Source: a virus (Duplodnaviria; Caudoviricetes). From it: DNA of 64,000 nucleotides. Position 1 is the stretch's first letter. Every line of letters begins with the position of its first letter. Location of the stretch: positions 91,260-155,259 of the IMG/VR virus record IMGVR_UViG_2818991472_000001; one strand, given 5' to 3'. Of the stretch, positions 3,891 through 62,407 are shown piece after piece. Both the position numbers and the translations under genes were made by a program. The notes beneath the pieces are model-generated. The model did not search any database. It was not told where the DNA came from and was given only the letters and a program-made list of their open reading frames with translations.

Positions 3891-4400
3891 TCACCAGTCC
3901 AGGGAGAACCAGACGACCTTGGTGTCGCCGCGCTTCACGACGCCCCACTCCTCCGCCATGGCCTCGACCAGGAGCAGCCCCCGGCCACCCACCAGCCCCT
4001 CACCGTCGGCGCCGTCGATGTCCTCGAAGCTGACCGGCTCGGACGCCTGCGCGGGCACCGCGACCTTGTCGGCGGACTCGGGGTCGCCGTCGATGACCTC
4101 GATCAGCACCCGGGCGTCGGCGCGCAGTTCGGCGCGCACCACGACCTTCGCTTCGTCGCCTTCCGGGTCGTCGGCGTGGCGGACGCTGTTGGTGATGATC
4201 TCGGACAGCAGGAGCACTGCCGTCTCGATGACCCGCGTGATCCCGTGCCACTGCGTCAGGCGCTGGCGCAGGTCGTCGCGGGCGACACCGACGCTCTCGG
4301 GATGGGCGGGGTAGGGGCGCCGGTACGGCTGGAATCCGTCGGGGTTGGCGCGCGCCAGTCTGTTGCTGGCGGCCTTCGCGGTCTGGCTCACAAGTCTCAC
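3891..4400 (-). CDS. HATPase_c-like ATP-binding/anti-sigma-type protein of WhiJ-like clusters
   Basis: LLLSEIITNSVRHA, IEVIDG, GGRGLLLVEAMAEEWGV, KVVWF. Confidence 0.85.
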   Translation of the reverse strand: MRLVSQTAKAASNRLARANPDGFQPYRRPYPAHPESVGVARDDLRQRLTQWHGITRVIETAVLLLSEIITNSVRHADDPEGDEAKVVVRAELRADARVLIEVIDGDPESADKVAVPAQASEPVSFEDIDGADGEGLVGGRGLLLVEAMAEEWGVVKRGDTKVVWFSLDW

Positions 4401-4607
4401 GCTCCAGGGGCGTACGAGTGGAACCGGGCATCACCCACCCTGGCCCGACGTGCGCACAGCGTGAGCGTCTCCAATACCCACGGTCCCGCAAGATCCGCGA
4501 AACTGCAACAATGTCAGCTGAACGAATGTCATTTCGATAGTGGAGTTTGACGCTTCGACACGTCAGACTGATCCTTGGACACCGGACGAGACCAGGGAGA
4601 CAACGGG

Positions 4608-5468: not shown

Positions 5469-5497
5469 GTCAACTCGCAAGTACGAAGGGCTCTCCA

Positions 5498-5734
5498 GTG
5501 AACACACCATCCCAGGGGTACAAGCAGTGGCGCATCTCGTCGGAATCGGGCGGTGACCAGGGGTCTTGCGTCGATGTCGGCCTCGGCGACCTCGACGCCG
5601 AGACCGAGGAAGTCGCGTTCCGGGACAGCACGCTCCAGGGTAGGGGGCCGGTCCTCGGCTTCCCTGCGTCCGCAGTGACCGCGCTGACGGGCGCAATCAA
5701 GGTCAGGGGCAGCCGTCTCGCGGGCGGCTTCTGA
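5498..5734 (+). CDS. DUF397 protein, copy 1
   Basis: WRISSES...CVDV...FRDS...GPVLGF; follows the XRE gene. Confidence 0.85.
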   Translation: MNTPSQGYKQWRISSESGGDQGSCVDVGLGDLDAETEEVAFRDSTLQGRGPVLGFPASAVTALTGAIKVRGSRLAGGF

Positions 5735-5752
5735 CCAGTGCGCAACCAGAAT

Positions 5753-5787
5753 GGTGGCCCCCGGCGCGCGATTCGCCGGGGGCCACC
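5753..5787 (+). terminator. intrinsic terminator-like hairpin
   Basis: 14-bp stem GGTGGCCCCCGGCG/CGCCGGGGGCCACC after the DUF397 stop. Confidence 0.65.
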
Positions 5788-5927
5788 CCTGTTTCTACCC
5801 CATCGGGCCGTCAGAGCCTCTCATACCCGTTTGAAGATGCATGGTCACATTCCGGCGATAGACGATCCCGCCCGGGGCATTCTCGCTACGCTGTGAGTCG
5901 CAACCCGCGAGAGCGAAGGGCGTTCCG

Positions 5928-6161
5928 GTGACACCGTCTCAGGGCTACAACCAGTGGCACATCTCGTCCCACTCCAACGGGGATCAAGGCGGCTGCGTCG
6001 ATGTCGGTATCGACGCAGCCGCCCCCGAGGCCGAGGAGATGGCCATCCGGGACAGCACGCTCCAGGGCAGCGGGCCGGTCCTCGGCTTCCCCGCCTCCGC
6101 CGTCAGCGCCCTCACCAGCGCCGTGAAGACGAAGGGCCACCGTCTCGCGGGCGGCTTCTGA
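5928..6161 (+). CDS. DUF397 protein, copy 2 (tandem duplicate)
   Basis: WHISSHS...CVDV...IRDSTLQGSGPVLGFPASAV, close to copy 1. Confidence 0.85.
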   Translation: MTPSQGYNQWHISSHSNGDQGGCVDVGIDAAAPEAEEMAIRDSTLQGSGPVLGFPASAVSALTSAVKTKGHRLAGGF

Positions 6162-6185
6162 CCAGCACGGCAACAGAAACGGTGG

Positions 6186-6530
6186 TCACGGCTGGTCCCG
6201 TACCCGAGCAGCGCGGTTGGCGATCTCGCTGGAGACCGGCTTGTAGTTGGCCAGGGCGGCCTCCACCGTGGCGCGGTAGGTGGCCAAGGCGGCCTCGAAG
6301 GTCGCCTCGGCGCCGGTCATCTCCTGGTGGGCATCGGCGATCCGGTGGCGAGCGGCCTGCAGGGCGGCCTGCCACTGCTCGCGCTCGGCGTCGGTGGCCG
6401 GGACGGTGCCAGGCAAGTCGGTGAGCGCGAGCAGCGGGTGGGTGAGGTCGAAGGTGACCTCGGCCCGGTTGCCGACGTAGGCCAGCTCCTCCACGGGGTT
6501 GAGCTGCTTCGGCTTCCAGCTGTCGGTCAC
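6186..6530 (-). CDS. helical hypothetical protein, paralog of the N-terminal part of 6527..7747
   Basis: GTGA-coupled start; ATxxExExW...FExALxxY pattern shared. Confidence 0.65.
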   Translation of the reverse strand: MTDSWKPKQLNPVEELAYVGNRAEVTFDLTHPLLALTDLPGTVPATDAEREQWQAALQAARHRIADAHQEMTGAEATFEAALATYRATVEAALANYKPVSSEIANRAARVRDQP

Positions 6531-7747
6531 TGGGACTCCTTGGCGAGCTGCTGGGCCTGAAGGGCCTTGTACTCCTCCGCCTCGGCCACGGTCATCCTGG
6601 TGATGAAGAAGTCGGCGCTGTGCCTGTCGCGGATCATCTTGTGGCCGTGCTCCTGGATGCGCGCGGCGACCCACTCGTACTCGTTGGCGACATCGGGCAG
6701 CTGGCCGGAGGCGAGGTCGGAGCTGGCGGCCCGCACTCCCCCCTCGAAGGTGTAGCTCACCGGGACCTGCTCGGCGGCCTTGACCGCCCTGAAGGTCTGG
6801 GCGTTGCGAGGCGGGTGAACGTGGAACCCAGACGTCAACGTGTCGGCGTTGTAGAGCGCCGCTCCCATTCGGGTGAGCAGCGCCTTCACGTCGTCCATGC
6901 CGATCTTCGGGCGGGTGTGGAGCCGCTCGTGCTCGGCGTCGTCGATGGCCTGCTGAGCCTTGGCTCGCCAGGCCGGGGCGTGGTCGCCGAGGCAGTCGAG
7001 GGCGGTGGCGGCGGCCTTGCAGCGGCGGCACCACTTGACGGGGAGCTTGGTGCCGGTCGGGCACCCCCGGCGGGGTCCGTCGTGCCGGGAGTTGTAGACC
7101 TCGTCCGCGCCGGTGACGGCGAGGTCGCCGATGTCCTCCAGCCGGACCCCGGGAAGGGACTTCTTGGCGACGGCCGGGCAGGCGGCGGTGTGGATGGTCG
7201 GGACGAGAGCGTCGGCGGGGAAGCTCTCAGAGATGTCGATCTTGGGCCGGGCGATCACCCAGTCCCGGCTGCCGAGCACCGCATCTTCGGCAGCCAGTTG
7301 CTGCTCGGCCTGGCGCCCCTGTTCCGCTTCGGCGCGCTCGCGTTCGGCTTCGAGGCTGGCGGCCATCTCCTCGTAGCGGGCGGCGATAGGCTCTCCGGCG
7401 TGCTGCTGGTACAGGCGCTCGGCCGCTCCTACGCGGTCCTGGTACCGCTGCAGGGCGAGTTCGAAGACCTTCTCGTGGACCTTCAGGTCAGCCAGAGCCT
7501 CGTCAACCATCTCGGTGTAGACGTCGTGGGCGGTGGCCCAGATCTCGACCTCGACCCTGGTGGCCTGGATCGGCCCCTCGCCGCTGCGCGCGTCGTACTC
7601 GTCCAGGGCGACGTCGACGGCCTGCTCGCGAAGGGCGGCGGTGACGAGGCGGAGCTTGCCCAGACGGCCCTGGGTCAGGTCGGAGTCGTAGTCCGTGCGG
7701 TCATCCGTGGTCGTGCGCCACAGCAGGGGGCGCTGGTCGGTGTCCAT
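6527..7747 (-). CDS. hypothetical protein with coiled coil and His/Cys motif
   Basis: 406-aa ORF; IHTAAC...CRRC; start 7 nt after a -10 element (probably leaderless). Confidence 0.75.
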   Translation of the reverse strand: MDTDQRPLLWRTTTDDRTDYDSDLTQGRLGKLRLVTAALREQAVDVALDEYDARSGEGPIQATRVEVEIWATAHDVYTEMVDEALADLKVHEKVFELALQRYQDRVGAAERLYQQHAGEPIAARYEEMAASLEAERERAEAEQGRQAEQQLAAEDAVLGSRDWVIARPKIDISESFPADALVPTIHTAACPAVAKKSLPGVRLEDIGDLAVTGADEVYNSRHDGPRRGCPTGTKLPVKWCRRCKAAATALDCLGDHAPAWRAKAQQAIDDAEHERLHTRPKIGMDDVKALLTRMGAALYNADTLTSGFHVHPPRNAQTFRAVKAAEQVPVSYTFEGGVRAASSDLASGQLPDVANEYEWVAARIQEHGHKMIRDRHSADFFITRMTVAEAEEYKALQAQQLAKESQ

Positions 7748-23508: not shown

Positions 23509-24127
23509 TGGTTCCCCTCCGCAGGGTGCCGATCCTGGAGACGATGATGTCGGCGACCCGCTCAGGGCTGCGGTTGGTGCAGTCGATGATCAGGGTGGGG
23601 TAGCCGACCTTTTCCAGGAAGGTAGCGGCTTCCTCATAGAGGGCGGCTTCCTTACGGCTGCTTCCGGGCATCTTCTCGAAGCGGCTGTGGGTGCCCCGGG
23701 CGGTCAGCCGGGCGTGGATGACCTCGGGGTCGGCGGTGAGCACGACGGTCAGGTCCGGGGTGATGGCGTGCTGGTTGATGGCCCAGATCGTCGTGGGGTC
23801 GATGCCGTCGAGCCGCTGCAGCACCAGGGAGGAGCCCACGTAGCGGTCGCACAGGACGGTGTCGCCGCGTTCGAGGGCGGGGGTGATCTCGGTGGCGATG
23901 TGGTGGTAACGGTCGGCGGCGACGAGGCAGGCCAGCGACATGCCGGTGTAGGTCTCGGTGCCGTGCCGGGCGATCTCGCCGAGGTTGGCCCGGGAGGGTT
24001 CGGTGGTGGCGTGGACTGCCGTTCCGGCTGTGGTCAGGAGGTGGCCGACGGCGGCGACGGTGGTGGACTTGCCGACGCCGCCGGGGCCGTCGAAGGCGAC
24101 AAACAGGCCGCGCTCGGTGTCGCTCAC
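23498..24127 (-). CDS. tmk: thymidylate kinase-like protein
   Basis: FVAFDGPGGVGKST, TTEPS, AADR, VLCDRY..SS, PDL. Confidence 0.85.
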   Translation of the reverse strand: MSDTERGLFVAFDGPGGVGKSTTVAAVGHLLTTAGTAVHATTEPSRANLGEIARHGTETYTGMSLACLVAADRYHHIATEITPALERGDTVLCDRYVGSSLVLQRLDGIDPTTIWAINQHAITPDLTVVLTADPEVIHARLTARGTHSRFEKMPGSSRKEAALYEEAATFLEKVGYPTLIIDCTNRSPERVADIIVSRIGTLRRGTSGN

Positions 24128-25242
24128 GAGACGGCCACCACGGGCAGCAGGGCGCGCTTGTTCGGGGCGACGGGGCACATCTCGGCGTCGAGGGCGCCGA
24201 TGCGCTCCCCGGCGGCGACCACGGCGGCCGGGCATCCCTTGCCGCAGCCGTCTGCCATCGAGCAGCTGCCGCAGGTGGGGTTGGCTCCGACGGTGTACCG
24301 CTCGTGGAAGTTGTAGGCGTCCAGGCGGTCGGCGATGTCGGTGTCGGTGAAGATGTTGCCGACGATGAACTCGGTGTCGGCGTGCTGGGAATTCGGGGTC
24401 CGGGCGGCGAAGACGAGGTAGGGGCAGACGGTGACCTCGCCCGGGGCGAAGACGTAGATGATCGTCCCGGCCTCGCAGTTCGCGAGGGGTTTGGTGTCGT
24501 TGGGGAAGCGGATGTGGACCAGGTCGAGCTGGTCGCTGGCGAACGGGGAGGTGAGGTCGTGGATGTGCCGCATGTGGTCGTCCGACCGGGCGAGCTTGTT
24601 CTTGCTCTTGACGCCGCGCCCCATGCTGGAGAGCGGGTTCATCAGGACGTAGGAGGCGCCCTGCTCGCTGGCGAAGGCGCACAGCTGGGCGTACTCCTCG
24701 TCCTCGGCAAGGTTGTTCGGGGTGCAGAGCAGGCCCTGCAGGAGCCCGGCCTGGGCCAGCCGCTTCACCGTCTCCACGGTGGTGTAGAACGACTCGCGGT
24801 CGCCCCGGAACTTGCCGTGGGAGTCGGCGGCGAAGCCGTCCAGGCTGACGTTCACGTGGATGTCGCCCATCTTGGCCAGGGCCGTGATGTGGTCGTCCGT
24901 GATCAGGGTGGCGTTGGTGCACAGTCCCACGCCCATGCCCGCGTCGCGGAAGGCGGCGGTGACGGCGAGGAAGTCGGGGTGCAGGAACGGCTCTCCGCCG
25001 GTGAGGGTCACCCGGGTGACCCGGGCCGCCTTCAGCTGGGGGATGACCTTGGTCCGGATGTCCTCCAGCGGCATCGTCACGCCGGTCTTGAGGGCGCTGA
25101 CGAAGCAGTGGGCGCAGCCGAGGTTGCAGGGCTCGTTGATTTGGACGAGCGCCTTGCGGTAGGGCTCCACGACGGAGGTCCGGAAGTAGCAGGACACGGC
25201 CTGCTCGTCCGTCATGATCCGGCGTGCTGTCTTCTCGCTCAT
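24124..25242 (-). CDS. radical SAM/SPASM domain protein
   Basis: CNLGCAHC, TGGEP, VSLDG; SPASM CEAG...CPY...CGSC...CGKGC...C. Confidence 0.9.
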   Translation of the reverse strand: MSEKTARRIMTDEQAVSCYFRTSVVEPYRKALVQINEPCNLGCAHCFVSALKTGVTMPLEDIRTKVIPQLKAARVTRVTLTGGEPFLHPDFLAVTAAFRDAGMGVGLCTNATLITDDHITALAKMGDIHVNVSLDGFAADSHGKFRGDRESFYTTVETVKRLAQAGLLQGLLCTPNNLAEDEEYAQLCAFASEQGASYVLMNPLSSMGRGVKSKNKLARSDDHMRHIHDLTSPFASDQLDLVHIRFPNDTKPLANCEAGTIIYVFAPGEVTVCPYLVFAARTPNSQHADTEFIVGNIFTDTDIADRLDAYNFHERYTVGANPTCGSCSMADGCGKGCPAAVVAAGERIGALDAEMCPVAPNKRALLPVVAVS

Positions 25243-33504: not shown

Positions 33505-33533
33505 ACCCTATGACCCTGATACCTAGGTGTCAA
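33505..33533 (-). promoter_or_regulatory. sigma70/HrdB-type promoter with operator motif A, copy 3
   Basis: TTGACA-N17-TAGGGT containing ACCTAGGTATCAGGGT. Confidence 0.8.
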
Positions 33534-36500
33534 CGCTGTTCCTCGGAGCCGCTCCGAATGGAATCTTTGTCCACACCCTGCCTGTGGAAACAATTATGTC
33601 TGATGCCGTCCAGGAGACTTCCGGGAGTTTGGGCATGAATCGGAAGTGGTCGCCGACGTACGCGAGCGTCATATGCGGTGACCAGCCGTGTTCGCTCGGG
33701 GTTCGATAGCCGTGGCCGTTGAGGAATTTCTCCAGATCGGAGTGGAGGTGAGTTCCTCCGGGGATATCAGCCGAGCCCCAGAGAACATTCTGGCCGGGCT
33801 TGGTGAATGTCCCCACGCCTCCGATGCGGACGGTTACCGGGCGGTGTCGGCTGGCCCAGTTCCCGATCAGCTGCGGCAAGTCGGCGAGCTGCTGGCGGGT
33901 GTAGTGACCCGTCTTGCCGAGGTAGGCGAGGGTGACGTGGAGCTGGGCTGCTGGTTCTCCGCCGGGCAGGGCCAGCTGCTCGGCGATCTCCGGCGGCGGG
34001 ACCAAGGCCACCATCATGCCGTCCTCGACTTCGGCGGCGGCCTGGCGGGCGATGCGGTCGGCCTCCTCGGGGGTGGCCTGCCGGAAGAACAGGGTGGCGG
34101 TCTTCGGCCTGAGCGAGGTGAGGTCGACGGTCTCGCTGGGGCCGTACTCGTCGTGGGTCATCACGCCGTCGTAGCCGTCGGCGGCGATGGCTTCGGACAG
34201 GGCGCGGCCGGACTTGCCGTCGTAGCGCGCGGACAGCTGGTGCTTCCAGTTCGACGGGTCGCGGTAGTCGCCGCCGAAGTGCATCCGCAGCGGCCGGTGG
34301 AAGGTGATCTGGCCGCCTTCGTAGCGCGGATCGTCGGCCAGGTGGGAGGGCAGCGCGCCCTGGGTGATGTATCGGCCGTGGGGTTCGAGGTCCTGGGCGA
34401 ACTGGCTGCCGTGGTGCCCGGCGCCCTCGGTGTTGCGGAAGTAATCGAAGGTGACGGGGCGATCGTCGCCGGTGTCCTCGGTGTAGGGCTGGCGCGCGGC
34501 GGTGTGGTGCCCGGTGGTGAAGTCGTGATGGGTGAAGTCGGTGCGGAAGTCGCGGTTGTCGTCGGCCAGGTGCAGGGTCCAGGAGATCCCGGTGCGGTCG
34601 CTGGCCCGCTCGCGGCTGTGCCAGACGATCTGCGTGGCCGGGTGCGGCACAGCGGGGAGGTCCTCGGCGGCTTCGTGAGCGGCCCCGTGGGCGTAGTCGG
34701 GGTCGTCCTCCCATTCATGGGCGGCGGGAGCGACCTGCTTGAGCCGTTCGGCGCGTTCGGCCACCGGTTGGGCCGGATCGTGGACGAAGGCGTGGTCCTC
34801 GGGAGTGAGGTGGACGGCGGTCCCTGCGTACTGCTCGGCCCCGAGGTCGTTGGGGTCGTCACCGGGGTGGTGGATCTCGGGCTGGTGGATCTCGGGGCCG
34901 TGGTAGGCCCACTCGTTGATGTCGTTGCCGTCTGTGTGCACGTGCTTGGCCGGGACGGTGGCCTTCAGCACCGGCCAGTCCGGGCCGGTGCCGTCCATGG
35001 CGTGGTTGCGCGCGTACTCGCCGGAGGTGGAGACCCAGTCGCCGGGGCTGATCCGGTCGACGCCGTGGGGCGCGGCCCGGTAGATCGTCACCGGCTCGTC
35101 CGGACGGCCGTGGGCGCGGTGGAGGGTGTGGAGGGACTCCTCGTGGGGCTCGCCGTAGCTGCCGTCGGCGACGTTCTCCTCGAAGCCGGGGTGGAAACCG
35201 GAAGCTCCGTTGGTGGGGTCGTGCAGGGGCGCGCTGTCCGGGCCTGGCGCTCGGTGCTGCATACGGTAGTCGTCGTCCACAGTCCCAGCTTGCCGTACTG
35301 GGAGGACAGCGGCGGCGGCGCGGGTGGGCGCGGCCTCGGCGGTCTGGTCCTTCTTCCAGTCGGTCAGGTCCTGCAGAGGGTGGCCCGGCGCGGCGTCCAG
35401 CGCCTTCCAGACGACATTGCGTTCGTCGTACAGGCCCGTTCCGTCGGGGCCGAAGGCGTCGTGGCGGTCTTGGTGCAGCTGGTCGTACAGGGCGGCGCCT
35501 GCGGCGGCCTGGTCGTCCTCGGGGAGGTGCTCGATCTGCTGGATCTGGTCGCGGAGGTCGTCGAGGCGGTCCCAGTCCTCTTCAGGGAGGTGGTGGGCGT
35601 CGAAGTCGTCGGGAACCTGCACGGGTTCGACGGCCCAGGTGTCCGTGGTGAGGTCGTAGGCGGCGTACGGCTTCAGGGTGCGGATGTCGAAGCTGTCGGG
35701 GTTGACGTAGAAGGTCGACTCCCACGGGCCGGTGGCGTGTCCGTCCGACTGCAGGCTCCGGTCGTCGTCGTCCAGGCCAGCACGCAGCTCTTCGTTGAGA
35801 CGCTGGTCGATCTCCTGGTCCGTCAGGTGCGAGAGCGGTGGGGCGCTGCGGCGGGCCTCGTCGTAGTTGACGCCGATGAGGGTGTCGAGGTCGCCGTTGC
35901 CGTACCAGTGGCTGGCTTCGGAGCCGGTGAGGTAGACGCGGGCCCACCGGGGCCAGTCGGAGCCGTAGCGGGGCGTCCAGAAGTCGTCGAGGAGGTCGAG
36001 GAGTTGCTGGCGGATCTCTGGTCGCAGGTGGGTGCCGTCGAAGAGCCTGGGGTCGAGGCCGGATTTGCCTGGGCCGAAGAAGTGGCCGGTGGGCAGCCAG
36101 TCGTGGTGGTGCTGGTAGGGCTGGGTGTTGTCGGGGACGATGGTGTTCTGGAAGGTGAGGCGGCGGATGGCCTGGTCATAGTCGTGCAGGCCGACGTAGC
36201 CGATGTGGATGCCGCCGTCGTCGGTGGGGCGGTGGACGACGCGGTGGCCTCGGCTGGCCTTGGTGCTGTTCCAACCCTTGAGGGGCTGGGAGAGGGCGTG
36301 GGTCTGCAGCCCGTCGTCGCCTCGGCGCAGGGCTTCGACGGTGTCGGCGATGCGGCGCTGGTCCTGGCGGTCGAGCTTGGCGAGGTCCTTATGGGCGCCG
36401 GGGTGGAAGGTGACCGGGCGGAGTTCGGCTACAGGCCCAGGTCCTGCTGCACCTTCTCCCAGGGGATCGGGGTCTCCCCCGAGTTGTCCCGTTCCAGGAT

Positions 36501-37038
36501 CAGCCGCTCCAGCTCCGGGTGCAGACGTGTCGTGTCGTGGCTTGCCTCGGCCTGCAGTTCGTGACTGGTCATCATGGTCCCCCTTGGCAGCGGTGGTTGG
36601 TTCATCAGCATAGGTGCTGTCGCCTGGGGTAGTGCGGAAGAAGTCGGCGGCGGAGGCCATGGTCCTGCCCCGGGTGACGGTCTTGTCCCGGGTGTAGCCC
36701 TTCCACCATGCCTTCCCGGCGTCGGAGCGGTCGCCGTGCTCGATCCGGCTTCCGGGGTGGCGACGCTGCATCTCGTCCATGAGGGCGCTGCCGACACCGC
36801 GTCGCTGGTGGTCGGGGTGGGTCTCCAGGCGGTCGACGGCCATGGTGCCGCCTCGCCGCTTGGGCGGGTAGTAGGTGAGGTGACCCATCTCCTCGCCGGT
36901 CTCCGGGTGGAGGGCCTTGAGGCGGGTGAGGGTCGGGTACTTCGATCCGCCGGTCTCCTGGTCTTCGTGGTCGAAGAGCGGCTGGAGCTGGAGCTGGTCG
37001 GTTGCTGCGTGCCGGAAGAACTCGGCGGCCGTGGTCAT
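33523..37038 (-). CDS. multi-enzyme (polyvalent) protein: GNAT + RelE-like + nucleotidyltransferase + two ART-like domains + 2H phosphoesterase
   Basis: HPDHQRRGVG (GNAT motif A); VTFHPGAHKDLAKLD...HRVV...YVGLHDY; LTGS...GDLD; IYR...STS...EW; GYDGV...ETVDL; LHVTLAY/PHMTLAY. Confidence 0.85.
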   Translation of the reverse strand: MTTAAEFFRHAATDQLQLQPLFDHEDQETGGSKYPTLTRLKALHPETGEEMGHLTYYPPKRRGGTMAVDRLETHPDHQRRGVGSALMDEMQRRHPGSRIEHGDRSDAGKAWWKGYTRDKTVTRGRTMASAADFFRTTPGDSTYADEPTTAAKGDHDDQSRTAGRGKPRHDTSAPGAGAADPGTGQLGGDPDPLGEGAAGPGPVAELRPVTFHPGAHKDLAKLDRQDQRRIADTVEALRRGDDGLQTHALSQPLKGWNSTKASRGHRVVHRPTDDGGIHIGYVGLHDYDQAIRRLTFQNTIVPDNTQPYQHHHDWLPTGHFFGPGKSGLDPRLFDGTHLRPEIRQQLLDLLDDFWTPRYGSDWPRWARVYLTGSEASHWYGNGDLDTLIGVNYDEARRSAPPLSHLTDQEIDQRLNEELRAGLDDDDRSLQSDGHATGPWESTFYVNPDSFDIRTLKPYAAYDLTTDTWAVEPVQVPDDFDAHHLPEEDWDRLDDLRDQIQQIEHLPEDDQAAAGAALYDQLHQDRHDAFGPDGTGLYDERNVVWKALDAAPGHPLQDLTDWKKDQTAEAAPTRAAAAVLPVRQAGTVDDDYRMQHRAPGPDSAPLHDPTNGASGFHPGFEENVADGSYGEPHEESLHTLHRAHGRPDEPVTIYRAAPHGVDRISPGDWVSTSGEYARNHAMDGTGPDWPVLKATVPAKHVHTDGNDINEWAYHGPEIHQPEIHHPGDDPNDLGAEQYAGTAVHLTPEDHAFVHDPAQPVAERAERLKQVAPAAHEWEDDPDYAHGAAHEAAEDLPAVPHPATQIVWHSRERASDRTGISWTLHLADDNRDFRTDFTHHDFTTGHHTAARQPYTEDTGDDRPVTFDYFRNTEGAGHHGSQFAQDLEPHGRYITQGALPSHLADDPRYEGGQITFHRPLRMHFGGDYRDPSNWKHQLSARYDGKSGRALSEAIAADGYDGVMTHDEYGPSETVDLTSLRPKTATLFFRQATPEEADRIARQAAAEVEDGMMVALVPPPEIAEQLALPGGEPAAQLHVTLAYLGKTGHYTRQQLADLPQLIGNWASRHRPVTVRIGGVGTFTKPGQNVLWGSADIPGGTHLHSDLEKFLNGHGYRTPSEHGWSPHMTLAYVGDHFRFMPKLPEVSWTASDIIVSTGRVWTKIPFGAAPRNSVDT
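36429..36575 (-). CDS. nested out-of-frame antitoxin-like protein (48 aa)
   Basis: MMTSHELQ...LERLILERDNSGETPIPWEKVQQDLGL; own AAGGGGG RBS; GC3 bias switches to this frame; stop abuts the RelE-like domain. Confidence 0.75.
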   Translation of the reverse strand: MMTSHELQAEASHDTTRLHPELERLILERDNSGETPIPWEKVQQDLGL

Positions 37039-37080
37039 GGGCACCTCCGCCCCTTCGCGGGGCGGGGCGCGGTGGTGACA

Positions 37081-45255: not shown

Positions 45256-45527
45256 CAGGCCCCCTTCGCGAAGGTGCGCTTGCACAGGACTTCCTCGGCG
45301 GGCCAGATGAGGAGGTCGTCGCCGTCGTGCACCGGGGTTCTGTGGCACGAGCAGGTCAGAGCCGGATCACCGTCGGCTCGGACGTAGGTGACGTGGTACG
45401 GAGGGTGCTCCGGCAGAACCGGGCGCGGCCTGGAGGTGAGCTGGCGCTGTCTCAGCTTCAGTACAGCCAGGACGACGAGGGTGGCGACGAAGCAGAAGAC
45501 CACGCCGTCGAGAGCCGTGCGGATCAT
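45255..45527 (-). CDS. small membrane-anchored protein
   Basis: N-terminal hydrophobic helix, CSCH; coupled at both ends. Confidence 0.6.
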   Translation of the reverse strand: MIRTALDGVVFCFVATLVVLAVLKLRQRQLTSRPRPVLPEHPPYHVTYVRADGDPALTCSCHRTPVHDGDDLLIWPAEEVLCKRTFAKGA

Positions 45528-46615
45528 GCCGCGTACTCCTCGTCGTCGTACGTGACCTCGTGCTCTGGGACGATCTCGCCGCTGACGGTGAGCAGGGCGC
45601 GCTGCCGGACCAGCTCGGTGAGTTCGGGCTTCTCCCGGAGGGCCTGCTTGACGTTGGCCCGGCCGACGATGTGCGTGCCGTCGGGGAGGCCGTACTTGCT
45701 GGCGTTGATCCGCTCGATCGCGCCGGTGGCGATGCCCAAGTTGAGTGCTTCGTCGGCCCGGTCGATGCCGATCGGCCCCCAGGTCGGGTGGTCGGCGGAG
45801 AACAGCCAGAAGTCGGCGGCGCGGCCCGGCGGCGCGAACTTGTTCCGGACGACCTTGGCGCGGAGCTGGCGGCCGATCTCCTCGTCCTTGACGGACTCGG
45901 AGACGGCGTCGGCAACCGGCACCTTGACGACTGGTTCGCCGGTCCTCTTCAGCTCGATCTTGGTCGTGGTGCAGTACTTGAGGATGTTCGGCCCGGCGCT
46001 CTTCTGGCCTCCGCGCGGGTTGCCGATGTCGGCCCTGTACTGGTTGACGAAGATGACCATGGCGTTCTTGGCCCGGCACAGGCTGGCGACCTGCTTGACC
46101 ATGCGGGAGATGACCTGCGAATTCTTGCCCATGGCGCTGTCCTCGGCGCTCTTCTCGAACGCCGCCTTGCTCTCCATGCCGCCGATCGAGTCCAGGCAGA
46201 CGACGGAGATGTCTCCGCTGCGCAGCAGCATCTTGGCGATGTCAGCGACGTCTTCGCTGTGGTCCGGGTAGATGTGGACGAAGCGGTCCTCGTCGAGGTC
46301 AAGGCCGAGTTTCTGGGCGTAGGCGAAGTCGAAGCTCTGCTCCATGTCGATGAGGGCGACGCCGCGATCGGGGAACATCTTCTGCGCGGAGGCCATGATC
46401 AGGGTGCAGAGCGAGGTCTTGCCGACGCCTTCCGGGCCGAGGATCTCGTGGGTGCGCCGCAGGGCGAGCCCTCCGATCCGCAGGGCGTGGTCGAGGGTGA
46501 TGGACCCTGTTGGCACGGCGACGGGCCGGGTCATGTCGTCGCGTCGCGTGACCTTGTCCCCGAAGGCTTTGGTCATGTCGGCGCGGAGTTTGCTGAGGCC
46601 CTTGGACGGGGGCAT
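45524..46615 (-). CDS. recA: phage-type RecA recombinase
   Basis: PTGSITLDHALRIGG, GPEGVGKT, IDME, LDS, FVNQYR, VVRNKFAPP. Confidence 0.9.
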   Translation of the reverse strand: MPPSKGLSKLRADMTKAFGDKVTRRDDMTRPVAVPTGSITLDHALRIGGLALRRTHEILGPEGVGKTSLCTLIMASAQKMFPDRGVALIDMEQSFDFAYAQKLGLDLDEDRFVHIYPDHSEDVADIAKMLLRSGDISVVCLDSIGGMESKAAFEKSAEDSAMGKNSQVISRMVKQVASLCRAKNAMVIFVNQYRADIGNPRGGQKSAGPNILKYCTTTKIELKRTGEPVVKVPVADAVSESVKDEEIGRQLRAKVVRNKFAPPGRAADFWLFSADHPTWGPIGIDRADEALNLGIATGAIERINASKYGLPDGTHIVGRANVKQALREKPELTELVRQRALLTVSGEIVPEHEVTYDDEEYAA

Positions 46616-46666
46616 GCGTCTCCTCTTGGCAGGGTTCGGTGGGCCGCTCGTGGCAGGGCGGGCGGC

Positions 46667-46954
46667 TCAGATTTCTTGGCGGAGGATCTCGCTGGCCCGG
46701 CCGGGCGGCCAGCCGACGGCCTGCTCCAGGAGCCAGAGGCGCGGCAGCCAGTAGCCCTCGGAGTTGTAGTCGGAGGCCGAGGGCACGTCGTCCGGGTGGC
46801 CGTAGACCCGGCCTCGTTCGAGGCGCAGGATGCTTCGGTCGGTGGACTTCATGACGGTGCCGACCTGCTTCCGCGTGAGGCCCGCAGCGACGCGGGCCTG
46901 CTCGGCCTCCCGGCCCAAGCGCCTCCAGGCGTCGACGGGGTGTTCCTCGCTCAC
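46667..46954 (-). CDS. XRE-family HTH protein
   Basis: WRRLGRE...ARVAAGLTRKQVG...LERG...LEQAVGWPPG. Confidence 0.75.
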   Translation of the reverse strand: MSEEHPVDAWRRLGREAEQARVAAGLTRKQVGTVMKSTDRSILRLERGRVYGHPDDVPSASDYNSEGYWLPRLWLLEQAVGWPPGRASEILRQEI

Positions 46955-47547
46955 TGCTCGTCCGCCGGGGTGGCGATGGCGCGGACGGTGTCGGCGAAGG
47001 CGCCCGCGACGGTGTCGCAGGCGTGCTCCAGGGCTTCCGCCGGGACGCCGAGGCCGTGCAGCTGCTGCAGGGCGGTGATGTACAGGTCGGCGATGCTGGA
47101 GATCTGGGCCCTCAGCTCTGCTCGGTTGGCGGGGAAGGGGAGGGTGGCCAGCCTGGTGAGGTCGGCGTCGGCCTGCTCCTGGGTCAGGTGCTCCCAGAGT
47201 CCGGGGCTGGAGGTCGGGCCGCCCGTGGAGACGGGCTCGGGCTCGGTGACGACCTTCACCGGACGGTCGAGGATGCGCAGGGAGGTGCCCCGGCCCCACT
47301 GGAGTGCCCTGTCGATGTTCGGCAGGAGGGGCATCAGGTTCTGGGGGGAGGCGTACGGGTGGCGGCTGACGCGGCCCTCCAGGAGGGCGGAGACCTGGTC
47401 GCTGGTGGCGTCGATGGCGTGGGCCAGGGCCTCGCGGTTGTCGTACTGGGACGGGTAGTCGCTGGTGATCTCCCGGCCGAGGCGAGCCCAGTCGGTCTTG
47501 CTGAAGGCGTAGGGGTCGATCGCGGTGTCGAAGCTCTCGGTGGTCAT
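46951..47547 (-). CDS. XRE-like HTH protein, paralog of 46667..46954
   Basis: WARLGRE...LLEGRV..HP...IDRALQWGRG...IL. Confidence 0.7.
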   Translation of the reverse strand: MTTESFDTAIDPYAFSKTDWARLGREITSDYPSQYDNREALAHAIDATSDQVSALLEGRVSRHPYASPQNLMPLLPNIDRALQWGRGTSLRILDRPVKVVTEPEPVSTGGPTSSPGLWEHLTQEQADADLTRLATLPFPANRAELRAQISSIADLYITALQQLHGLGVPAEALEHACDTVAGAFADTVRAIATPADEQ

Positions 47548-47558
47548 GCGGGTCTCCT

Positions 47559-50500
47559 TCACAGGGGCTGGTAGTCGGTGAGGGTGAAGCCTCGGTCGTT
47601 CTTGCGGACCTCGGCGAAGCAGAGTTGGCCGAGCTTGAAGCGGTGAAGCTCGGTGGCCCAGGCGTCGGGGAAGACCACGGCGGTCACGTCCCGCTCCTCG
47701 GTCTCCAGCTCCAGCCAGCCCATGGCCTTCGCGGGGTGCTTGCGGATGCTGCTGATCAGTGCCGCGACGATGTACCGGCCGTTGGGGGCGTTGCTGAGCT
47801 GGCTGGCTGTCTGGGTGCAGATCGCCCGTTCGACGGGGTCGATGCGGTCGAAGGGGGTGGAGCTGACGTAGCAGCCGAGCATGTCCCGTTCGATCTCGCG
47901 GATGTCCTCGGCGGTGTACGGCTGGACGTCGTGGAGCTGGAGGGCGGGGCGGGGCGTGTACTGGCGGCACGCCTTGGTGCAGCGCTTCGGGGGCTTCTTG
48001 CGGGGGAGCTTCTTGCCGGTCCGGGGGTTGACCGGGGCGGGCTCGTTGTCCCAGTCGAACCGGCAGGGCAGGCCGTTGGGGCCGGTGACGGTCTCGTCCT
48101 TGAGGCTGCAGCGGGTGTCGGCGCCGGTCTTCCGGGCGAGCAGCAGTGCTTCCAGGCCACGGCGGTTGGGGACGAGACTGTCGAAGGCGCCGACTCGGGC
48201 GAGGAGGGCGACCACGCCTGCGTTGGCCCCGCGCCCGCGCCTGGTCTCGAAGTCGGACCAGGAGCTGTACGGCTGGTGGGCTACGAGATCGGCCACCGCA
48301 CTCTCGCCGACGCCCTTGATGGAGTCGAGGCCGTACCGGACGGCGTAGGCGCTGGGGTCGATCGAGAAGCCCCGACCGGAGACGTTGACGTCCGGGGGGA
48401 GGACCGCGACGCCGAGGCGGCGGGACTCGCGGACGAACTCCGGGACGCGGTCCTTGTCGACGGTGGACATGGCCGCCTGGAGGAACTCGATCGGGTAGTG
48501 GACCTTGAGGAAGGCGGTCCAGAACGCGAGGATGCCGTAGGCGTAGGCGTGGCTCTTGTTGAAGGAGTACTTGCTGAACTCCGCCATCTGGTGCCACAGG
48601 TGCTCGGCGGCCTCGCGGGGCATGTCGGCGCGGGCGAGGAAGTCCTTCCCGGCGGCGGCGATCTTCTCGATCTTCTTCTTGCCGAGGATGGACCTGACGC
48701 CGTCGGCCTCCTCTTCGCTGTAGCCCGCGAGGAGCCGGGTGACGGCCATGACCTGCTCCTGGTAGATCATGCAGCCGTGGGTGGGCTCCAGGACCTCGCG
48801 CAGTCGCTCGTCGGGGTAGCTGGTCTGCTGCTTGCCTGCTCGCCTGCGGAGGTAGGCGTCGGTGAGTCCGGAGTTCATGGGGCCCGGCCGGACCAGGGTG
48901 ATCATGTCGGCCAGCTCCGGGAGGGAGCGGGGGCGCATCTGCTCGCAGAGCCGCGTGCCGGAGTGGGTCTCGATCTGGAAGACGCCGAGCACGTGGGCGT
49001 CCGCGATCTCCTCCCACACCATTGGGTCCTCGAACTGCTCCTCCCAGGCGTCGAGGTCGAGGATGATGCCGCGCTGCTCCCGGATCGCGTCGAGGCAGAC
49101 CTGGACGGTGTCGAGGGTGCGGAGGGTGAGCACGTCGAACTTAACCAGCCCGAGGTTCTCGACGTCAGCCATCGACCACTGGGTGACCATCTGCTCTTCG
49201 CCGTCGACGGAGCGCAGGGGCAGCCAGCCGGTGAGCGGGCGGTCGGTGGAGATGACGACTCCTGCTGCGTGGCGGCCGTAGCTCTTGAGGCGGCCGACCA
49301 GGCGCTCGGCCATGGCGAAGAGGTCGGGGTAGCGCTGGGCGTAGGGGGCGAGCTGGTCCCCGTGCTGGGTCCACAGTTCGTCCCATGACATGCCGAGCCC
49401 GGCGGTCCCGGCCTCGGCTTCGTCGATCAGGGCGCAGACCTTGCGGAGGTCCACGTGGGCGCCGTCGGGGAGGCGGGAGGCGAAGACGCGGCCGAGGTCG
49501 TTGATGACCGCCTTGTTCTTCAGCCGCAGCTCGGTGCCGATGCTGACGACGTGGTCCTGGCCGTAGCGCGAGCGCAGGTAGGCGAGGATGTCGGCCTTGC
49601 GGGAGGCGGGGAAGTCGACGTCGAAGTCCGGCAGGCCGCTTCGGCCGCGCGTCAGGAAGCGCTCGAAGAGGAGTGAGTGCCGGATGGGGTCGAGCGAGGT
49701 GATGCGGGTGAGGTAGGCGACGAGGCTTCCTCCGCCGGAGCCTCGTCCGGGCCCGACCAGGATGCCGTTGTCCTTCGCCCAGGAGCAGTAGTCCGCGACC
49801 ATCAGGTAGTAGCCGCAGAATCCTCGCTCGACCAGGAGGTCCATCTCCCGTTCGAAGCGGGAACGGTAGGTCTGCTGGTCGGCGGTGGCGGGGATGCGTC
49901 GCTGCCAGTTGGCCTCGCAGGTCTCGCGCAGGCGGCGGGCGTCGTCGTCGTGTGTGCCGTCCCTGGTGAACACGGGGGTGGTGGTGGTGCCTTCGATGCG
50001 CGCTGTGCAGCGGGCGGCGAGGACGGCAGTGTTGGTGACGGCCTCGTCGACGACGTCGGGTGCGAGGTAGGCGAGGGCGGCGCGGACTTCGGCCTCGGTC
50101 TGGAGGTAGAGGTCGAGGTCTTCGCTGAAGAGGTCCGTCTCGTCCTGGATGTCCTTGTTGGTCTGGACGGCAATCCAGGTGCTGTGGGCGTCGGCGTCGG
50201 CGCAGGTCGGGAAGTGCGAGTCGACGGTGGCCAGCAGCGGCAGGCCGTGTTCGCGGGCGAGGTCGATGAGCTGGTTGTTCAGGGCCTGCTGCTTGGGCAG
50301 CGTGTTGGTCTGGATCTCCACGTACAGGCGGCCGGGGAAGATCGCCATGAGGTGGGCCAGGCGCTGGCGGGCGGTCTCGGTGTCGCCGTCGGCGAGCGCG
50401 ACTGCGATGGGGCCGCGCAGGCAGCCGGTGGAGGCGATCACGCCGTCGGCGTGGCGCTGCAGGGTGCTCCAGTCCATGCGGGGCCTGCCGTAGTGGCCGT

Positions 50501-51200
50501 CCCGGTAGGACTCGGTGGAGGCTGCCCAGAGATTGCTCAGGCCGGTGTTGTTCTCGGCGTAGAGGCACAGGTGCCAGTAGTTGTTCCGGATGTGCTTCTG
50601 GGCTTCGGCGTCGCCTGGTGCTGGGCGGGCAAGCCGGTCGTCGACCAGGTTAGCTTCGATACCGAATACCGGGTGGAGGCCCGCTGCGTCGCAGGCTCGC
50701 TGGAGTTCGGGGTGGCCTGCGCAGGTGCCGTGGTCGGTGAGGCCGAGCGCGGTCTGACGGTCTGCGGCGACCTGGTGGACGGCCTCTCCCAGAGTGGACA
50801 GACCATCCAGGGCGCTGTACTCGGCATGGGTGTGGAGGTGGACAAAGTTGCTCCGTTGCGCATGTGCTGAGTTGCTTATCTCTGGTTTTGCTCGCTCTGC
50901 CTCTCCGATGGTCGGCAGTCCGTGCGGATGCCGGGTGAGGGCTTCGGGAGCCACGCTGTAGGTGCCGCTGGCGGTCTCTGTGCGCAGGTCGGCGAAGGTG
51001 TCGGCGGTGACGGCCTCGGCGGAGCCGTCGGAGGCCACACAGGCGATGCCTTCGGCTCCGGCCGCGAGCGCGCGGGCCCAGAGGCTGGCCGGGATGTTGT
51101 TCCACGTGTCGGTCGGAACGAGAAGCCAGCGGCTGGCGTCGTCGTCGTGCTCGACCAGGGCTGTGGTGGTGGACGGGTGGGTCTCGATGACGCGGTACAT
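47559..51200 (-). CDS. dnaE: DNA polymerase III alpha subunit (phage-encoded)
   Basis: FVHLHTHAEYSALDG, TDHG, GPGRGSGGGSLVAY, PDFDVDF, GRHAAG, KFDVL, SFNKSHA. Confidence 0.97.
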   Translation of the reverse strand: MYRVIETHPSTTTALVEHDDDASRWLLVPTDTWNNIPASLWARALAAGAEGIACVASDGSAEAVTADTFADLRTETASGTYSVAPEALTRHPHGLPTIGEAERAKPEISNSAHAQRSNFVHLHTHAEYSALDGLSTLGEAVHQVAADRQTALGLTDHGTCAGHPELQRACDAAGLHPVFGIEANLVDDRLARPAPGDAEAQKHIRNNYWHLCLYAENNTGLSNLWAASTESYRDGHYGRPRMDWSTLQRHADGVIASTGCLRGPIAVALADGDTETARQRLAHLMAIFPGRLYVEIQTNTLPKQQALNNQLIDLAREHGLPLLATVDSHFPTCADADAHSTWIAVQTNKDIQDETDLFSEDLDLYLQTEAEVRAALAYLAPDVVDEAVTNTAVLAARCTARIEGTTTTPVFTRDGTHDDDARRLRETCEANWQRRIPATADQQTYRSRFEREMDLLVERGFCGYYLMVADYCSWAKDNGILVGPGRGSGGGSLVAYLTRITSLDPIRHSLLFERFLTRGRSGLPDFDVDFPASRKADILAYLRSRYGQDHVVSIGTELRLKNKAVINDLGRVFASRLPDGAHVDLRKVCALIDEAEAGTAGLGMSWDELWTQHGDQLAPYAQRYPDLFAMAERLVGRLKSYGRHAAGVVISTDRPLTGWLPLRSVDGEEQMVTQWSMADVENLGLVKFDVLTLRTLDTVQVCLDAIREQRGIILDLDAWEEQFEDPMVWEEIADAHVLGVFQIETHSGTRLCEQMRPRSLPELADMITLVRPGPMNSGLTDAYLRRRAGKQQTSYPDERLREVLEPTHGCMIYQEQVMAVTRLLAGYSEEEADGVRSILGKKKIEKIAAAGKDFLARADMPREAAEHLWHQMAEFSKYSFNKSHAYAYGILAFWTAFLKVHYPIEFLQAAMSTVDKDRVPEFVRESRRLGVAVLPPDVNVSGRGFSIDPSAYAVRYGLDSIKGVGESAVADLVAHQPYSSWSDFETRRGRGANAGVVALLARVGAFDSLVPNRRGLEALLLARKTGADTRCSLKDETVTGPNGLPCRFDWDNEPAPVNPRTGKKLPRKKPPKRCTKACRQYTPRPALQLHDVQPYTAEDIREIERDMLGCYVSSTPFDRIDPVERAICTQTASQLSNAPNGRYIVAALISSIRKHPAKAMGWLELETEERDVTAVVFPDAWATELHRFKLGQLCFAEVRKNDRGFTLTDYQPL

Positions 51201-60256: not shown

Positions 60257-62407
60257 TCAGGAGGCAGCGCCGAGGGCCTCGCGCCAGGCAGCGTAGTAGG
60301 TCTTGACGTCGTCGAGGGACGTGGTGACCGGCGCCGGGGGGAGCCCTCGGACGATGTTCTTGCCCCAGTGGGTGGTGGACAGGCGGGGGTCGAGGATGGC
60401 GACGATGCCGTAGTCCGTGACGGTGCGCAGGAGTCGGCCGAAGCCCTGTCCCAGGGTGAGCATCATCAGGGGCAGCGCCAGCTCGGCGAAGTCGTTGCCG
60501 CCGCGCTCCTTGATCTTCTTGGAGCGGGCCGCGATCACCGGGTCGCTGGGGACAGCGAAGGGGAGCTTCATCATGACGACGAGGCGGTTCGTGTCGCCCG
60601 GGAAGTCAACGCCGACGAAAAACGACTTCATGCCGAACAGGACGCTGTCCTTCTGCTCCTTGAACTTCTGGGCGATCTCCTTGTTGGTGTGGTCCTTGCC
60701 CTGCATGTACACGGGGAACCCGGCGGCCCCGATGCGCTCGGCCAGCAGGTTGTAGGCCGCGATCATGTCGGTCTTCGAGGTGAAGAGCAGCATGGCTCCG
60801 CCTCGGGCGGCATCGCGGACGAGCATGGCGATGGTCTCGATGGCCCAGGTCTGCCAGGCGGCGCGGGCGTCCTTGTCCTTGGCGGAGGGGATGGGCATCG
60901 GCTCGCCCGCCTCGGTCTTGGCGCCGGGGACGTACATGAGCATCTGCCGCTCGTAGTCGAAGGGCGTGCCGACGTCGAGCGTGGTGGCCTTCTCCAGGCC
61001 GAGCGTCTTGGCCGCGTAGCTGAAGCCGGAGTTGCCGGTGCTGAGGGTGGCCGAGAGGATGACGGCCGAGGTCTCGTTCCACAGCTCCTCGCGGAGGATG
61101 GGGCCGACTTCGATGGGGCACGCGGTGAGGGCCCAGCGGGTGACCTGCTCCCCGGTCTTCTTGCTGCGGGCGGTGTAGGTCTCGGGCCAGGCGACCATGT
61201 CGATCTCAGGGGCCTCCAGGACCCGGGCGATGTTGGTGAGGTAGCTCTCGCCGAGGGTCAGCAGGCGCTTCTGCTTCGTGCCCTGGGCGCCCTTCTCACC
61301 CTTGGTGATCTTGGCGGCCTTGATCTTGTGCCAGGCGCGGGTGATGGCCTGGGTGAGGGCCTCGAAGACGGGGTAGTGCTCCTCGACGAAGTCGACGTCG
61401 AGGGTGGCTCCTTCGATCTCCATGAGCTTGACGACGATCTCGCGGATCTCGACGAGCTTGGCCTGGATCGTCTCGACGAGCTTCTCGGTGTCGCGGATGG
61501 CTTCGAGGTCACGTTCGGCGTTCTCGTCGTCGGTAGCGCTCTGGAGGGTCACGAAGTTCAGGGCCTGGTCGGCCCAGGCGAGGATGCCGCCCTCCTTGAC
61601 CTCGAAGCCGAGGGTGCTCTGGGCGGTCTCGGGCAGTTCGTGGCCCTCGTCGAAGATCATGAGGTCGCGGTCGCCGAGGATGACGGACTCGCCGATGCCG
61701 TTCTCGTTGCTCTCGGCGATGGACATCTTCACCTTGACGTCGAGCATCGCCATCTTGTGGTTGGTGACCACGATGTTGGCCTCGGCGGCCTCGTCCTTGG
61801 CCTTGTAGCCGAAGCAGGTCTGGCCGAACGCGCAGCCGGAGCGGCCGGGGCACTCGTTCGCGCCGACGGCGACGTGCCTCCACTCCTCGGGGGCCACCGG
61901 GGTGGTGAGGGTGTCGCGGTCGCCGGTGGAGGTGGAGCCGTCGGCCATCGTCTCCTCGATGAGGTCGGCCAGGTTGGCGACCTGCTCGGAGGTGGCCTCC
62001 TGCAGCTTGTCCTTGCAGACGTACTGCCCGAGGCCCTTCAGCGGCGCGTAGGTGAAATCGACCGGGAGGTGCTCCTTCAGGAACGGGAGGTCCTTCTCCA
62101 GGTACTGGGTCATCAGCGCGAGGGTGGAGGTGGCGATGACGACCCGGCCTCCGGCGATCCGGCCGTTGCGGCTGACGCCGAGGATGGCCGGGATCAGCGC
62201 GCCGAGACTCTTGCCGGTGCCGGTACCGGCTTCCGCGAGGAGGTGCTGGGGGGCCGGGTCCGTCTCGCAGGCGGTGATGACGGCTTCGATCGCGGCGGCG
62301 AGCTTCTGCTGGGCCGGGCGGGCGGTGTAGCCGGGGAGGCGGGAGGCCAGGACGTTCTCGGCGTCGGCGAAGGTGCGGAGCTGGGGTTCGGGGGTGGCGG
62401 TCGTCAT
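60257..62407 (-). CDS. DinG/YoaA-family ATP-dependent helicase
   Basis: RPAQ, EAGTGTGKS, Fe-S Cys, VTNH, FDEGH, SATL, GVDFPG, KLPF, QGFGRLLR. Confidence 0.93.
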   Translation of the reverse strand: MTTATPEPQLRTFADAENVLASRLPGYTARPAQQKLAAAIEAVITACETDPAPQHLLAEAGTGTGKSLGALIPAILGVSRNGRIAGGRVVIATSTLALMTQYLEKDLPFLKEHLPVDFTYAPLKGLGQYVCKDKLQEATSEQVANLADLIEETMADGSTSTGDRDTLTTPVAPEEWRHVAVGANECPGRSGCAFGQTCFGYKAKDEAAEANIVVTNHKMAMLDVKVKMSIAESNENGIGESVILGDRDLMIFDEGHELPETAQSTLGFEVKEGGILAWADQALNFVTLQSATDDENAERDLEAIRDTEKLVETIQAKLVEIREIVVKLMEIEGATLDVDFVEEHYPVFEALTQAITRAWHKIKAAKITKGEKGAQGTKQKRLLTLGESYLTNIARVLEAPEIDMVAWPETYTARSKKTGEQVTRWALTACPIEVGPILREELWNETSAVILSATLSTGNSGFSYAAKTLGLEKATTLDVGTPFDYERQMLMYVPGAKTEAGEPMPIPSAKDKDARAAWQTWAIETIAMLVRDAARGGAMLLFTSKTDMIAAYNLLAERIGAAGFPVYMQGKDHTNKEIAQKFKEQKDSVLFGMKSFFVGVDFPGDTNRLVVMMKLPFAVPSDPVIAARSKKIKERGGNDFAELALPLMMLTLGQGFGRLLRTVTDYGIVAILDPRLSTTHWGKNIVRGLPPAPVTTSLDDVKTYYAAWREALGAAS

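Follow-up and report, generated by a model that had tools for sequence, protein, structure and literature searches.

The stretch of DNA analyzed here, referred to below as the window, comprises 64,000 nucleotides at 69% GC (positions 91,260 to 155,259 of IMG/VR record IMGVR_UViG_2818991472_000001, corresponding to contig region C8:91260-155259 of a 10-Mb Streptomyces-like genome). On its minus strand lies a gene for a polyvalent (multi-effector) protein of 1173 amino acids (aa), and inside this gene, in the linker that leads from a GNAT acetyltransferase domain to a domain of the RelE/YoeB fold, is a second, small open reading frame (ORF), set in the +1 frame relative to the large one (coordinates of all features are given in Table 1). 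Its product is MMTSHELQAEASHDTTRLHPELERLILERDNSGETPIPWEKVQQDLGL, followed by a stop. An earlier note on this DNA had claimed an ORF at this place in the linker of the main gene, with an AAGGGGG ribosome-binding site in front of it and a stop where the RelE domain starts, and each of these elements was found; the nested stop codon, TAG at 36431-36429, falls 11 nucleotides (nt) short of the first conserved codon of the RelE domain (R209, at 36420).

The base composition of the overlap is that of the nested frame. Between approximately 36640 and 36440 the GC fraction at third codon positions of the main frame (frame 0) drops from about 0.93 to 0.33-0.50, and over the same stretch the GC fraction at frame-0 position 1, which is position 3 of the nested frame, climbs to 0.87-0.97. 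The switch to GC-ending codons in an alternative frame, which the earlier note had reported, is thus confirmed by GC content taken codon position by codon position (GC1, GC2 and GC3 for the three positions), and it is singular within the window: in a composition scan of 3,946 windows of 90 nt across the 35 genes of the window that have GC3 support, the overlap was the only internal flip, the remaining flagged windows being the over-extended 5' ends of two ORFs.

The arrangement recurs in relatives of the polyvalent gene. With residues 125-330 as the query we found 42 large multi-domain homologues, 38 of which carry the RelE module, and we examined the DNA of 18 RelE-bearing places among the homologues. 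Twelve of these loci are canonical (the window, L012, L013, L014, L016, L019, L022, L024/L025, L027, L028, L029 and L031), in that each has a +1-frame ORF of 45-61 codons that begins with ATG, is preceded by a GGAGG-like site 8-13 nt upstream and stops between -11 and +7 nt relative to the RelE start. The encoded peptides follow the consensus ..PELExELQERAxTPxExxVPWExxKExLGL, ending at the stop, and those of the relatives are 29-56% identical to the window peptide. As a control, we looked for the same configuration (ATG, GGAGG-like site, 45-61 codons, stop) throughout the polyvalent genes of these loci: it is present at the RelE start in 11 of the 12 genes and at 20 of 13,794 other frame-0 positions (0.15%), where the ORFs have off-frame composition and junk-like translations. 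Against this background the nested ORF is conserved, and the refutation by lack of conservation that the earlier note had allowed for fails. The last 35 nested codons carry the coding signature typical of the genus in all 12 loci (GC1 0.69-0.86, GC2 0.34-0.43, GC3 0.86-1.00) and are indistinguishable in codon-position GC from the adjoining RelE domain read in frame 0.

Further members of the peptide family were sought in several ways. A profile of the peptides, searched against 1.84 billion proteins, returned 35 representatives at E ≤ 1e-3, nearly all of them 44-80 aa in length and with the same layout; the DNA of two further profile representatives was read, and one (L032) is nested in an open, RelE-bearing frame and the other (L033) is not. 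The nested ORF is also present in L017, with its stop displaced 12 codons further on, and on plasmid pRLB1-9.1 of Streptomyces sp. RLB1-9 (L001), where a single polyvalent gene contains two tandem RelE-like domains (L001:9343-9930); the first of these copies has a nested +1 ORF upstream, with an AAGGAGG site, an ATG at L001:9206 and a 48-aa product ending ..NELRHRAAVSAQQQA. When 167 genomes of the genus were searched in six frames with the 48-aa window peptide, only chance-level matches appeared outside its own genome, and a word-indexed search with the same peptide gave no candidates. Its own genome holds a single copy of the peptide family and a single copy of this RelE clade, and the two are adjacent. 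As a separate observation, two similar short DNA segments stand side by side at L032:200-300, with the frame-0 reading IGHYGG and the nested reading IGDYF, which suggests a small duplication that shifted the frame near the nested start.

Selection acts on both frames of the overlap. In frame 0 the overlap encodes an AT-hook-like motif, AGRGKPR, which the earlier note had overlooked; it is almost invariant among the homologues with RelE, occurs once per protein (as AGRGRPR in some), about 45 aa before RelE, in most of the RelE-bearing homologues (P0004-P0040), is absent from homologues that lack RelE, and is followed in the homologues by a Gly/Ala/Pro-rich frame-0 stretch of variable length. 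The codons of this motif vary mainly at frame-0 third positions, the ratio of nonsynonymous to synonymous polymorphism (pN/pS) being 0.29 in frame 0 as against 2.9 in the nested frame, and these sequence comparisons show the motif to be under purifying selection in frame 0 and frame 0 to be read through the overlap. As to what the motif does, nucleic-acid binding or a processing site are our guesses. Within the 70 codons before the RelE domain, the window has no frame-0 ATG, GTG or TTG.

Variation among close relatives bears on both frames at once. In four such relatives, 12 of 105 sites are variable in the overlap and 69 of 267 in the RelE coding sequence, the proportion being lower in the overlap at every codon position. 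Frame-0 third positions are variable at 5 of 35 sites in the overlap compared with 37 of 89 in RelE (Fisher p = 0.006), and nested third positions at 3 of 35 (p = 0.0003 against the same 37 of 89); suppressed synonymous variation is a classical sign of two overlapping constraints. The constraint is partitioned along the overlap: roughly the first 15 nested codons are unconstrained in their own frame and carry the frame-0 AGRGKPR hook, and the last 30 or so encode the conserved part of the peptide, predicted to form two helices, where frame 0 is a low-complexity linker. An overprinted gene is recognized by translation signals of its own together with selection on both frames, and both are found here.

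For transcription of the nested gene, the earlier note had pointed to a TATGCT hexamer as a -10-like element. The hexamer is present, at 36612-36607, without a -35 partner; a promoter consensus scan found no sigma-70-like site near it, and the stretch that precedes the nested ATG varies greatly among close relatives (47 of 65 sites), so that we regard a promoter of its own at this hexamer as unsupported. It is more likely that the peptide is translated from the polyvalent mRNA by way of the internal ribosome-binding site. The proposal of a dual-coding nested gene accordingly keeps its core (a conserved ORF that, to judge by its sequence, shares its DNA with the linker) and loses the promoter, and we are highly confident that the nested gene is real and separately translated. 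A phage precedent for such an arrangement is provided by the spanin genes of lambda, where Rz1 lies within Rz in the +1 frame and their products work as a pair. Like the nested ORF, Rz1 is small, has a ribosome-binding site of its own and is enclosed by a larger phage gene; the difference lies in function, which is lysis in lambda, whereas the overlap in the window falls on the linker before a domain that the small product may control.

The domain that follows the nested gene (residues 209-297) was compared with toxins of the RelE group in sequence and in predicted structure. Pfam ParE_toxin matches it weakly (E = 0.05, below the family cut-off) and an NCBIfam scan of the domain gave no match; a profile of five relatives, compared with PDB sequences, gave weak yet significant matches to YoeB (E = 5e-4) and RelK (E = 1e-3), and the JGI annotation of several homologues is COG RelE. 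The AlphaFold2 (AF2) model, with a predicted local distance difference test score (pLDDT) of 87, has the element order E-H-H-E-E-E-E-H, and its top Foldseek matches are YoeB, RelK, YafQ and RelE (template modeling [TM] score 0.73-0.77, E about 1e-5), with ParE2 also among the matches. Judged by this model, which has the compact alpha-alpha-beta4-alpha fold, the domain would belong to the YoeB-like branch of the RelE/ParE (BECR-fold) superfamily. Residues invariant in the family are QTH, STKASRGHR, and the His and Tyr of a GLH-x-Y motif. We searched for stand-alone close relatives of this RelE clade (53-172 aa) and found none, and the in-frame absorption of a free toxin-antitoxin operon, which the earlier note had suggested as the origin of the cassette, could not be traced; apart from the exceptions given below, the RelE-bearing loci that we read already have the nested layout. 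A weak chromosomal match to the RelE-domain profile (L035, G000:C1:2197910-2198080, E = 0.005) is probably an ordinary chromosomal RelE/YoeB-type toxin.

The peptide itself is acidic (isoelectric point [pI] 4.1-5.1 in 11 of the 12 loci) and the domain is basic (pI about 10 in 11 of 12, and 8.3 in L012). In the AF2 model of the peptide, two helices occupy the conserved C-terminal 30 residues (pLDDT 85-89), the N-terminal 18 residues being unconserved and of low pLDDT, and Foldseek returned no match to this model. Each of the nearest named language-model clusters (RelB3_C, Unstab_antitox, DUF6290 and PaaA2) is an antitoxin family, at scores of 0.77-0.81 that are under the reliable range and serve as a lead only.

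Set beside known type II systems, in which the antitoxin gene usually lies upstream and overlaps the toxin gene slightly, the locus has the expected gene order, a protein gene next to the toxin on what would be the same transcript and upstream of it, with the difference that here it is nested inside the toxin-bearing gene. Operons of the relBE/yefM-yoeB type (YefM-YoeB, RelJK, DinJ-YafQ and RelBE; PDB 6L8E, 3OEI, 4ML0 and 4FXE) encode toxins of the same fold as the window domain (TM 0.73-0.77), and they too have a small acidic protein gene directly upstream that ends at the toxin start; here as there, one transcript would make both products. They differ from the arrangement in the window, where the toxin domain is one internal part of a 1173-aa multi-enzyme protein, without a separate start codon, and where the antitoxin-like gene lies wholly within the toxin-bearing gene, in another frame. 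Of the type II placement asserted in the earlier note, what stands is an acidic peptide gene directly before a RelE/YoeB-fold domain. Compared with YefM, Phd, RelB and DinJ, the 48-aa peptide has no detectable homology and no DNA-binding domain (ribbon-helix-helix, Phd/YefM or helix-turn-helix) of the kind found at the N-terminus of type II antitoxins, nor does it match Phd/YefM, RelB, DinJ, Unstab_antitox, PaaA2 or RelB3_C in sequence. Such a domain is not universal among antitoxins, PaaA2 being one without it; PaaA2 has a gene to itself, in an operon of three genes that includes a dedicated regulator. Like the window peptide, PaaA2 (in complex with ParE2; PDB 5CZF) is short (about 50-60 aa), acidic and largely helical, and each would do no more than wrap its toxin; the two have no sequence similarity.

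We consider it probable, with moderate rather than high confidence, that the nested peptide is the antitoxin of the RelE domain, and we base this on position, size and shape, charge, co-occurrence and copy number: the ORF directly precedes a RelE-fold toxin and stops where that toxin begins, an arrangement known from relBE and yefM-yoeB; in its shortness and predicted helices the peptide resembles the segment with which such antitoxins wrap their toxins; an acidic peptide is paired with a basic domain; the hook-plus-linker module is found only in RelE-bearing homologues; and the genome holds a single, adjacent copy of each partner. In this model, ribosomes in frame 0 would translate the overlap as AGRGKPR and then as a Gly/Ala/Pro-rich flexible linker leading into the YoeB/RelE-fold domain, and ribosomes that start at the internal Shine-Dalgarno site and ATG would make, in the +1 frame, a 48-aa acidic two-helix peptide. 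This peptide would act as a type II antitoxin of the minimal kind, which lacks a DNA-binding domain; translated from the mRNA of the polyvalent protein, it would bind the RelE-like domain in the producing cell and keep it silent, allowing the effector to be made, and probably packaged or transferred, without shutdown of the producer's own translation. Translation of the peptide, its binding to the domain, the neutralization of the domain and the timing of toxin release are steps that we infer, and together they would amount to a type II-like toxin-antitoxin pair with the antidote gene overprinted inside the toxin-bearing polyvalent gene.

Several observations weigh against this assignment. Pfam and NCBIfam scans of the peptide gave no match to any antitoxin family, and its profile found only chance-level matches among PDB sequences; the description of the tail IPWE.V...LGL as typical of known antitoxins, given in the earlier note, finds no support in these searches, antitoxin families appearing only as the weak language-model neighbors mentioned above. 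The second RelE-like copy of the pRLB1-9.1 gene has no nested ORF in front of it, and in L015 and L030 the nested tail has diverged or the stop has been lost. At L023:1-460, an intact RelE domain with all family-invariant residues is preceded by acidic frame-0 sequence of an ordinary kind that contains no hook and no nested ORF; its antidote may possibly be supplied in trans, and the same sample, or a sister one, contains a paralogue that has the nested ORF (L024/L025). At L033:833-1012, a relative of the peptide (subfamily ..LVKVAKADKDWITPEVA..LKRA.DGS..IPW..VEAELAEMDRLG) is encoded by a lone gene flanked by two ParB-like genes, and the 1.3-kb contig on which it lies has no RelE. Finally, in the conserved C-terminal block of distant relatives, pN/pS is 1.26 in the nested frame and 1.16 in frame 0, which does not separate the frames; these Nei-Gojobori ratios are uninformative, probably owing to nested third positions that are near-fixed as G or C and to peptides that are only about 40% identical, and it is the comparison of close relatives given above that is informative.

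The missing homology to known antitoxins, the lone relative between ParB-like genes and the RelE domains that have no nested ORF would all suit a nested gene that is translated into something other than an antitoxin (a folding or packaging chaperone, an adaptor of the RelE module or a small regulator), its position being a matter of module history. Such a role sits less well with the tight placement of the nested stop, which in nearly every locus is no more than about 11 nt from the RelE start, with the pairing of an acidic peptide and a basic domain, and with a frame-0 hook that accompanies RelE and is absent from RelE-less homologues; gene order and size, moreover, are like those of minimal antitoxins of the RelE/ParE superfamily such as PaaA2. 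On balance we judge a role other than that of antitoxin, the main rival to our reading, to be unlikely.

The peptide could also lack an independent start and be reached by programmed ribosomal frameshifting from frame 0, which would yield a truncated GNAT-linker-peptide product that ends before RelE. That both frames are open and constrained would fit, and internal Shine-Dalgarno-like sites can stimulate frameshifting, as in prfB and dnaX. However, the ATG stands at canonical spacing from a GGAGG-like site in every locus, no conserved slippery sequence was seen, the stretch just upstream of the ATG is highly variable, and RelE would still need frame-0 read-through, for which the conservation of AGRGKPR speaks; we therefore regard frameshifting as very improbable. 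An artefact, either a chance off-frame ORF in GC-rich DNA or an indel that falsely fuses separate GNAT, antitoxin and RelE genes, can be dismissed with near certainty, even though long off-frame ORFs are common at 69% GC, frame 0 would be expected from the composition to stay open over the overlap by chance (T being rare at nested third positions) and public gene calls render two relatives as a small gene and a truncated toxin gene, because the frame relation recurs in at least 12 independent assemblies of isolates and metagenomes (which excludes the sequencing error that the earlier note had named as a refutation), the composition flip is present in all 12 canonical loci, frame-0 AGRGKPR shows synonymous variation, no conserved start codon precedes RelE and the background ORFs fail the composition test.

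The two relatives that were split (public calls P0003 and P0030) each show a separate small gene followed by a toxin gene that starts at RelE (L012:2885-3034 and 3001-5028; L013:2876-3034 and 3001-7434). We considered an independent RelE start at the public GTG and rejected it, this GTG being a by-product of the nested Pro-Trp codons, without a ribosome-binding site, and absent in the window. Better frame-0 starts with Shine-Dalgarno sites lie upstream, at L012:2770 and L013:2821, and the former restores the usual N-terminus of the family, TKAAEFFRHAAQ; because these starts exist and the GTG is a by-product, we count both loci as nested too. The expectation that standard annotation would overlook the nested gene proved right, in that public calls either omit it or truncate the large gene to fit.

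The large protein carries, besides the RelE-like domain, an N-terminal GNAT core and a C-terminal 2H phosphoesterase domain, which scores under the model cut-off of TIGR02258. With several unrelated effector domains (GNAT, RelE-fold and 2H) joined in one phage- or plasmid-borne polypeptide, it is what Iyer et al. 2017 (PMC5512222) called a polyvalent protein, in this case one that includes a RelE/YoeB-fold module; that work describes large multi-domain effectors of this kind and BECR/RelE-fold RNase domains within the polyvalent proteins of phages and conjugative elements. Among the homologues the RelE module occurs in many different domain contexts, in shuffled architectures of which some include ART-PolyVal, NUDIX or Arr. 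A motif of the form (A/T)-x-(F/Y)-F-(R/K) (for example AAEFFR, AADFFR, ATLFFR and FDYFRN) is found at the N-terminus of these polyvalent proteins and again where internal modules meet, before as well as after the RelE cassette; outside the window it is seen at L012:2770-2810 and after the RelE domains of L014, L016, L019, L022, L028 and L017. This motif could be a processing or targeting signal left from formerly separate genes.

The window also encodes RecA, an alpha subunit of DNA polymerase III (PolIII), a helicase and a radical SAM enzyme of its own, a gene content in keeping with a large phage or phage-plasmid. Databases list related elements, about 150 kb in size, both as 'plasmid pRLB1-9.1' and as IMG/VR viral contigs, and because they are recorded in both ways, the element of the window looks like a Streptomyces phage-plasmid.

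Table 1. Features of the polyvalent gene, the gene nested in it and other genes of the window (window coordinates)
Feature	Position	Strand	Basis or remark
Polyvalent (multi-effector) protein gene, 1173 aa: GNAT, linker, RelE/YoeB-like domain, further modules, 2H phosphoesterase	33523..37044	-	ORF and translation
GNAT acetyltransferase core, residues 47-95	36760..36906	-	Pfam Acetyltransf_1, E = 8.8e-6
Frame-0 module-boundary motif MASAADFFR	36634..36660	-	Similar motif at the protein N-terminus and before the 2H domain
Shine-Dalgarno-like AAGGGGG	36579..36585	-	3 nt upstream of the nested ATG (AAGGGGG-ACC-ATG)
Nested +1-frame gene, 48 codons, acidic antitoxin-like peptide (stop included in the interval)	36429..36575	-	ORF, composition, conservation
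Frame-0 motif AGRGKPR (AT-hook-like)	36535..36555	-	In the overlap, where the N-terminus of the nested peptide is unconserved
RelE/YoeB-fold toxin-like domain, residues 209-297	36154..36420	-	Weak Pfam match, PDB profile, AF2, Foldseek
2H phosphoesterase (LigT-like), C-terminal, residues 1023-1132	33649..33978	-	Pfam PF13563 (2_5_RNA_ligase2/LigT), E = 4e-13
(A/T)-x-(F/Y)-F-(R/K) sites	37017-37029, 36634-36660, 34083-34101, 34437-34455	-	
RecA, DnaE-type PolIII alpha subunit, DEAD/Helicase_C_2 helicase, radical SAM enzyme	45524-51200, 60257-62407, 24124-25242	-	

In the literature that we searched, there is no description of an antitoxin-like gene nested in a polyvalent toxin gene. Full-text searches on out-of-frame or embedded antitoxins led only to a synthetic relE-in-ilvA design and to unrelated overlapping genes, and a term search of Iyer et al. 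2017 (PMC5512222) found neither the word 'overlapping' nor a passage on a nested or overlapping immunity gene. In Gerdes 2025 (PMC11980606), many multidomain RelE-like proteins were set aside, partly because no antitoxin was identifiable.

More tentatively, and with less than even confidence, we suggest that the unit made up of the xFFR motif, the Shine-Dalgarno site and ATG, the AGRGKPR hook, the nested antitoxin and the RelE domain may be a self-immunized cassette that shuffles between polyvalent proteins of Streptomyces phage-plasmids. On delivery the antitoxin might stay behind or decay, so that the toxin would become active only in the new cell. By extension, many multidomain toxins now regarded as 'orphans', with no antitoxin to be found, may carry immunity genes overprinted on the linker before the toxin domain.

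If the peptide is the antidote, it would explain how a translation-poisoning domain can be part of a large effector that has no annotated immunity gene. The locus would then be a natural entanglement of toxin and antidote in one stretch of DNA, in which neither could easily be lost or mutated alone. It lies in a blind spot of gene callers, in which the small gene is omitted or the large one truncated, and it offers a compact and testable model of partitioned dual coding, with the constraint on each frame placed in a different half of the overlap.

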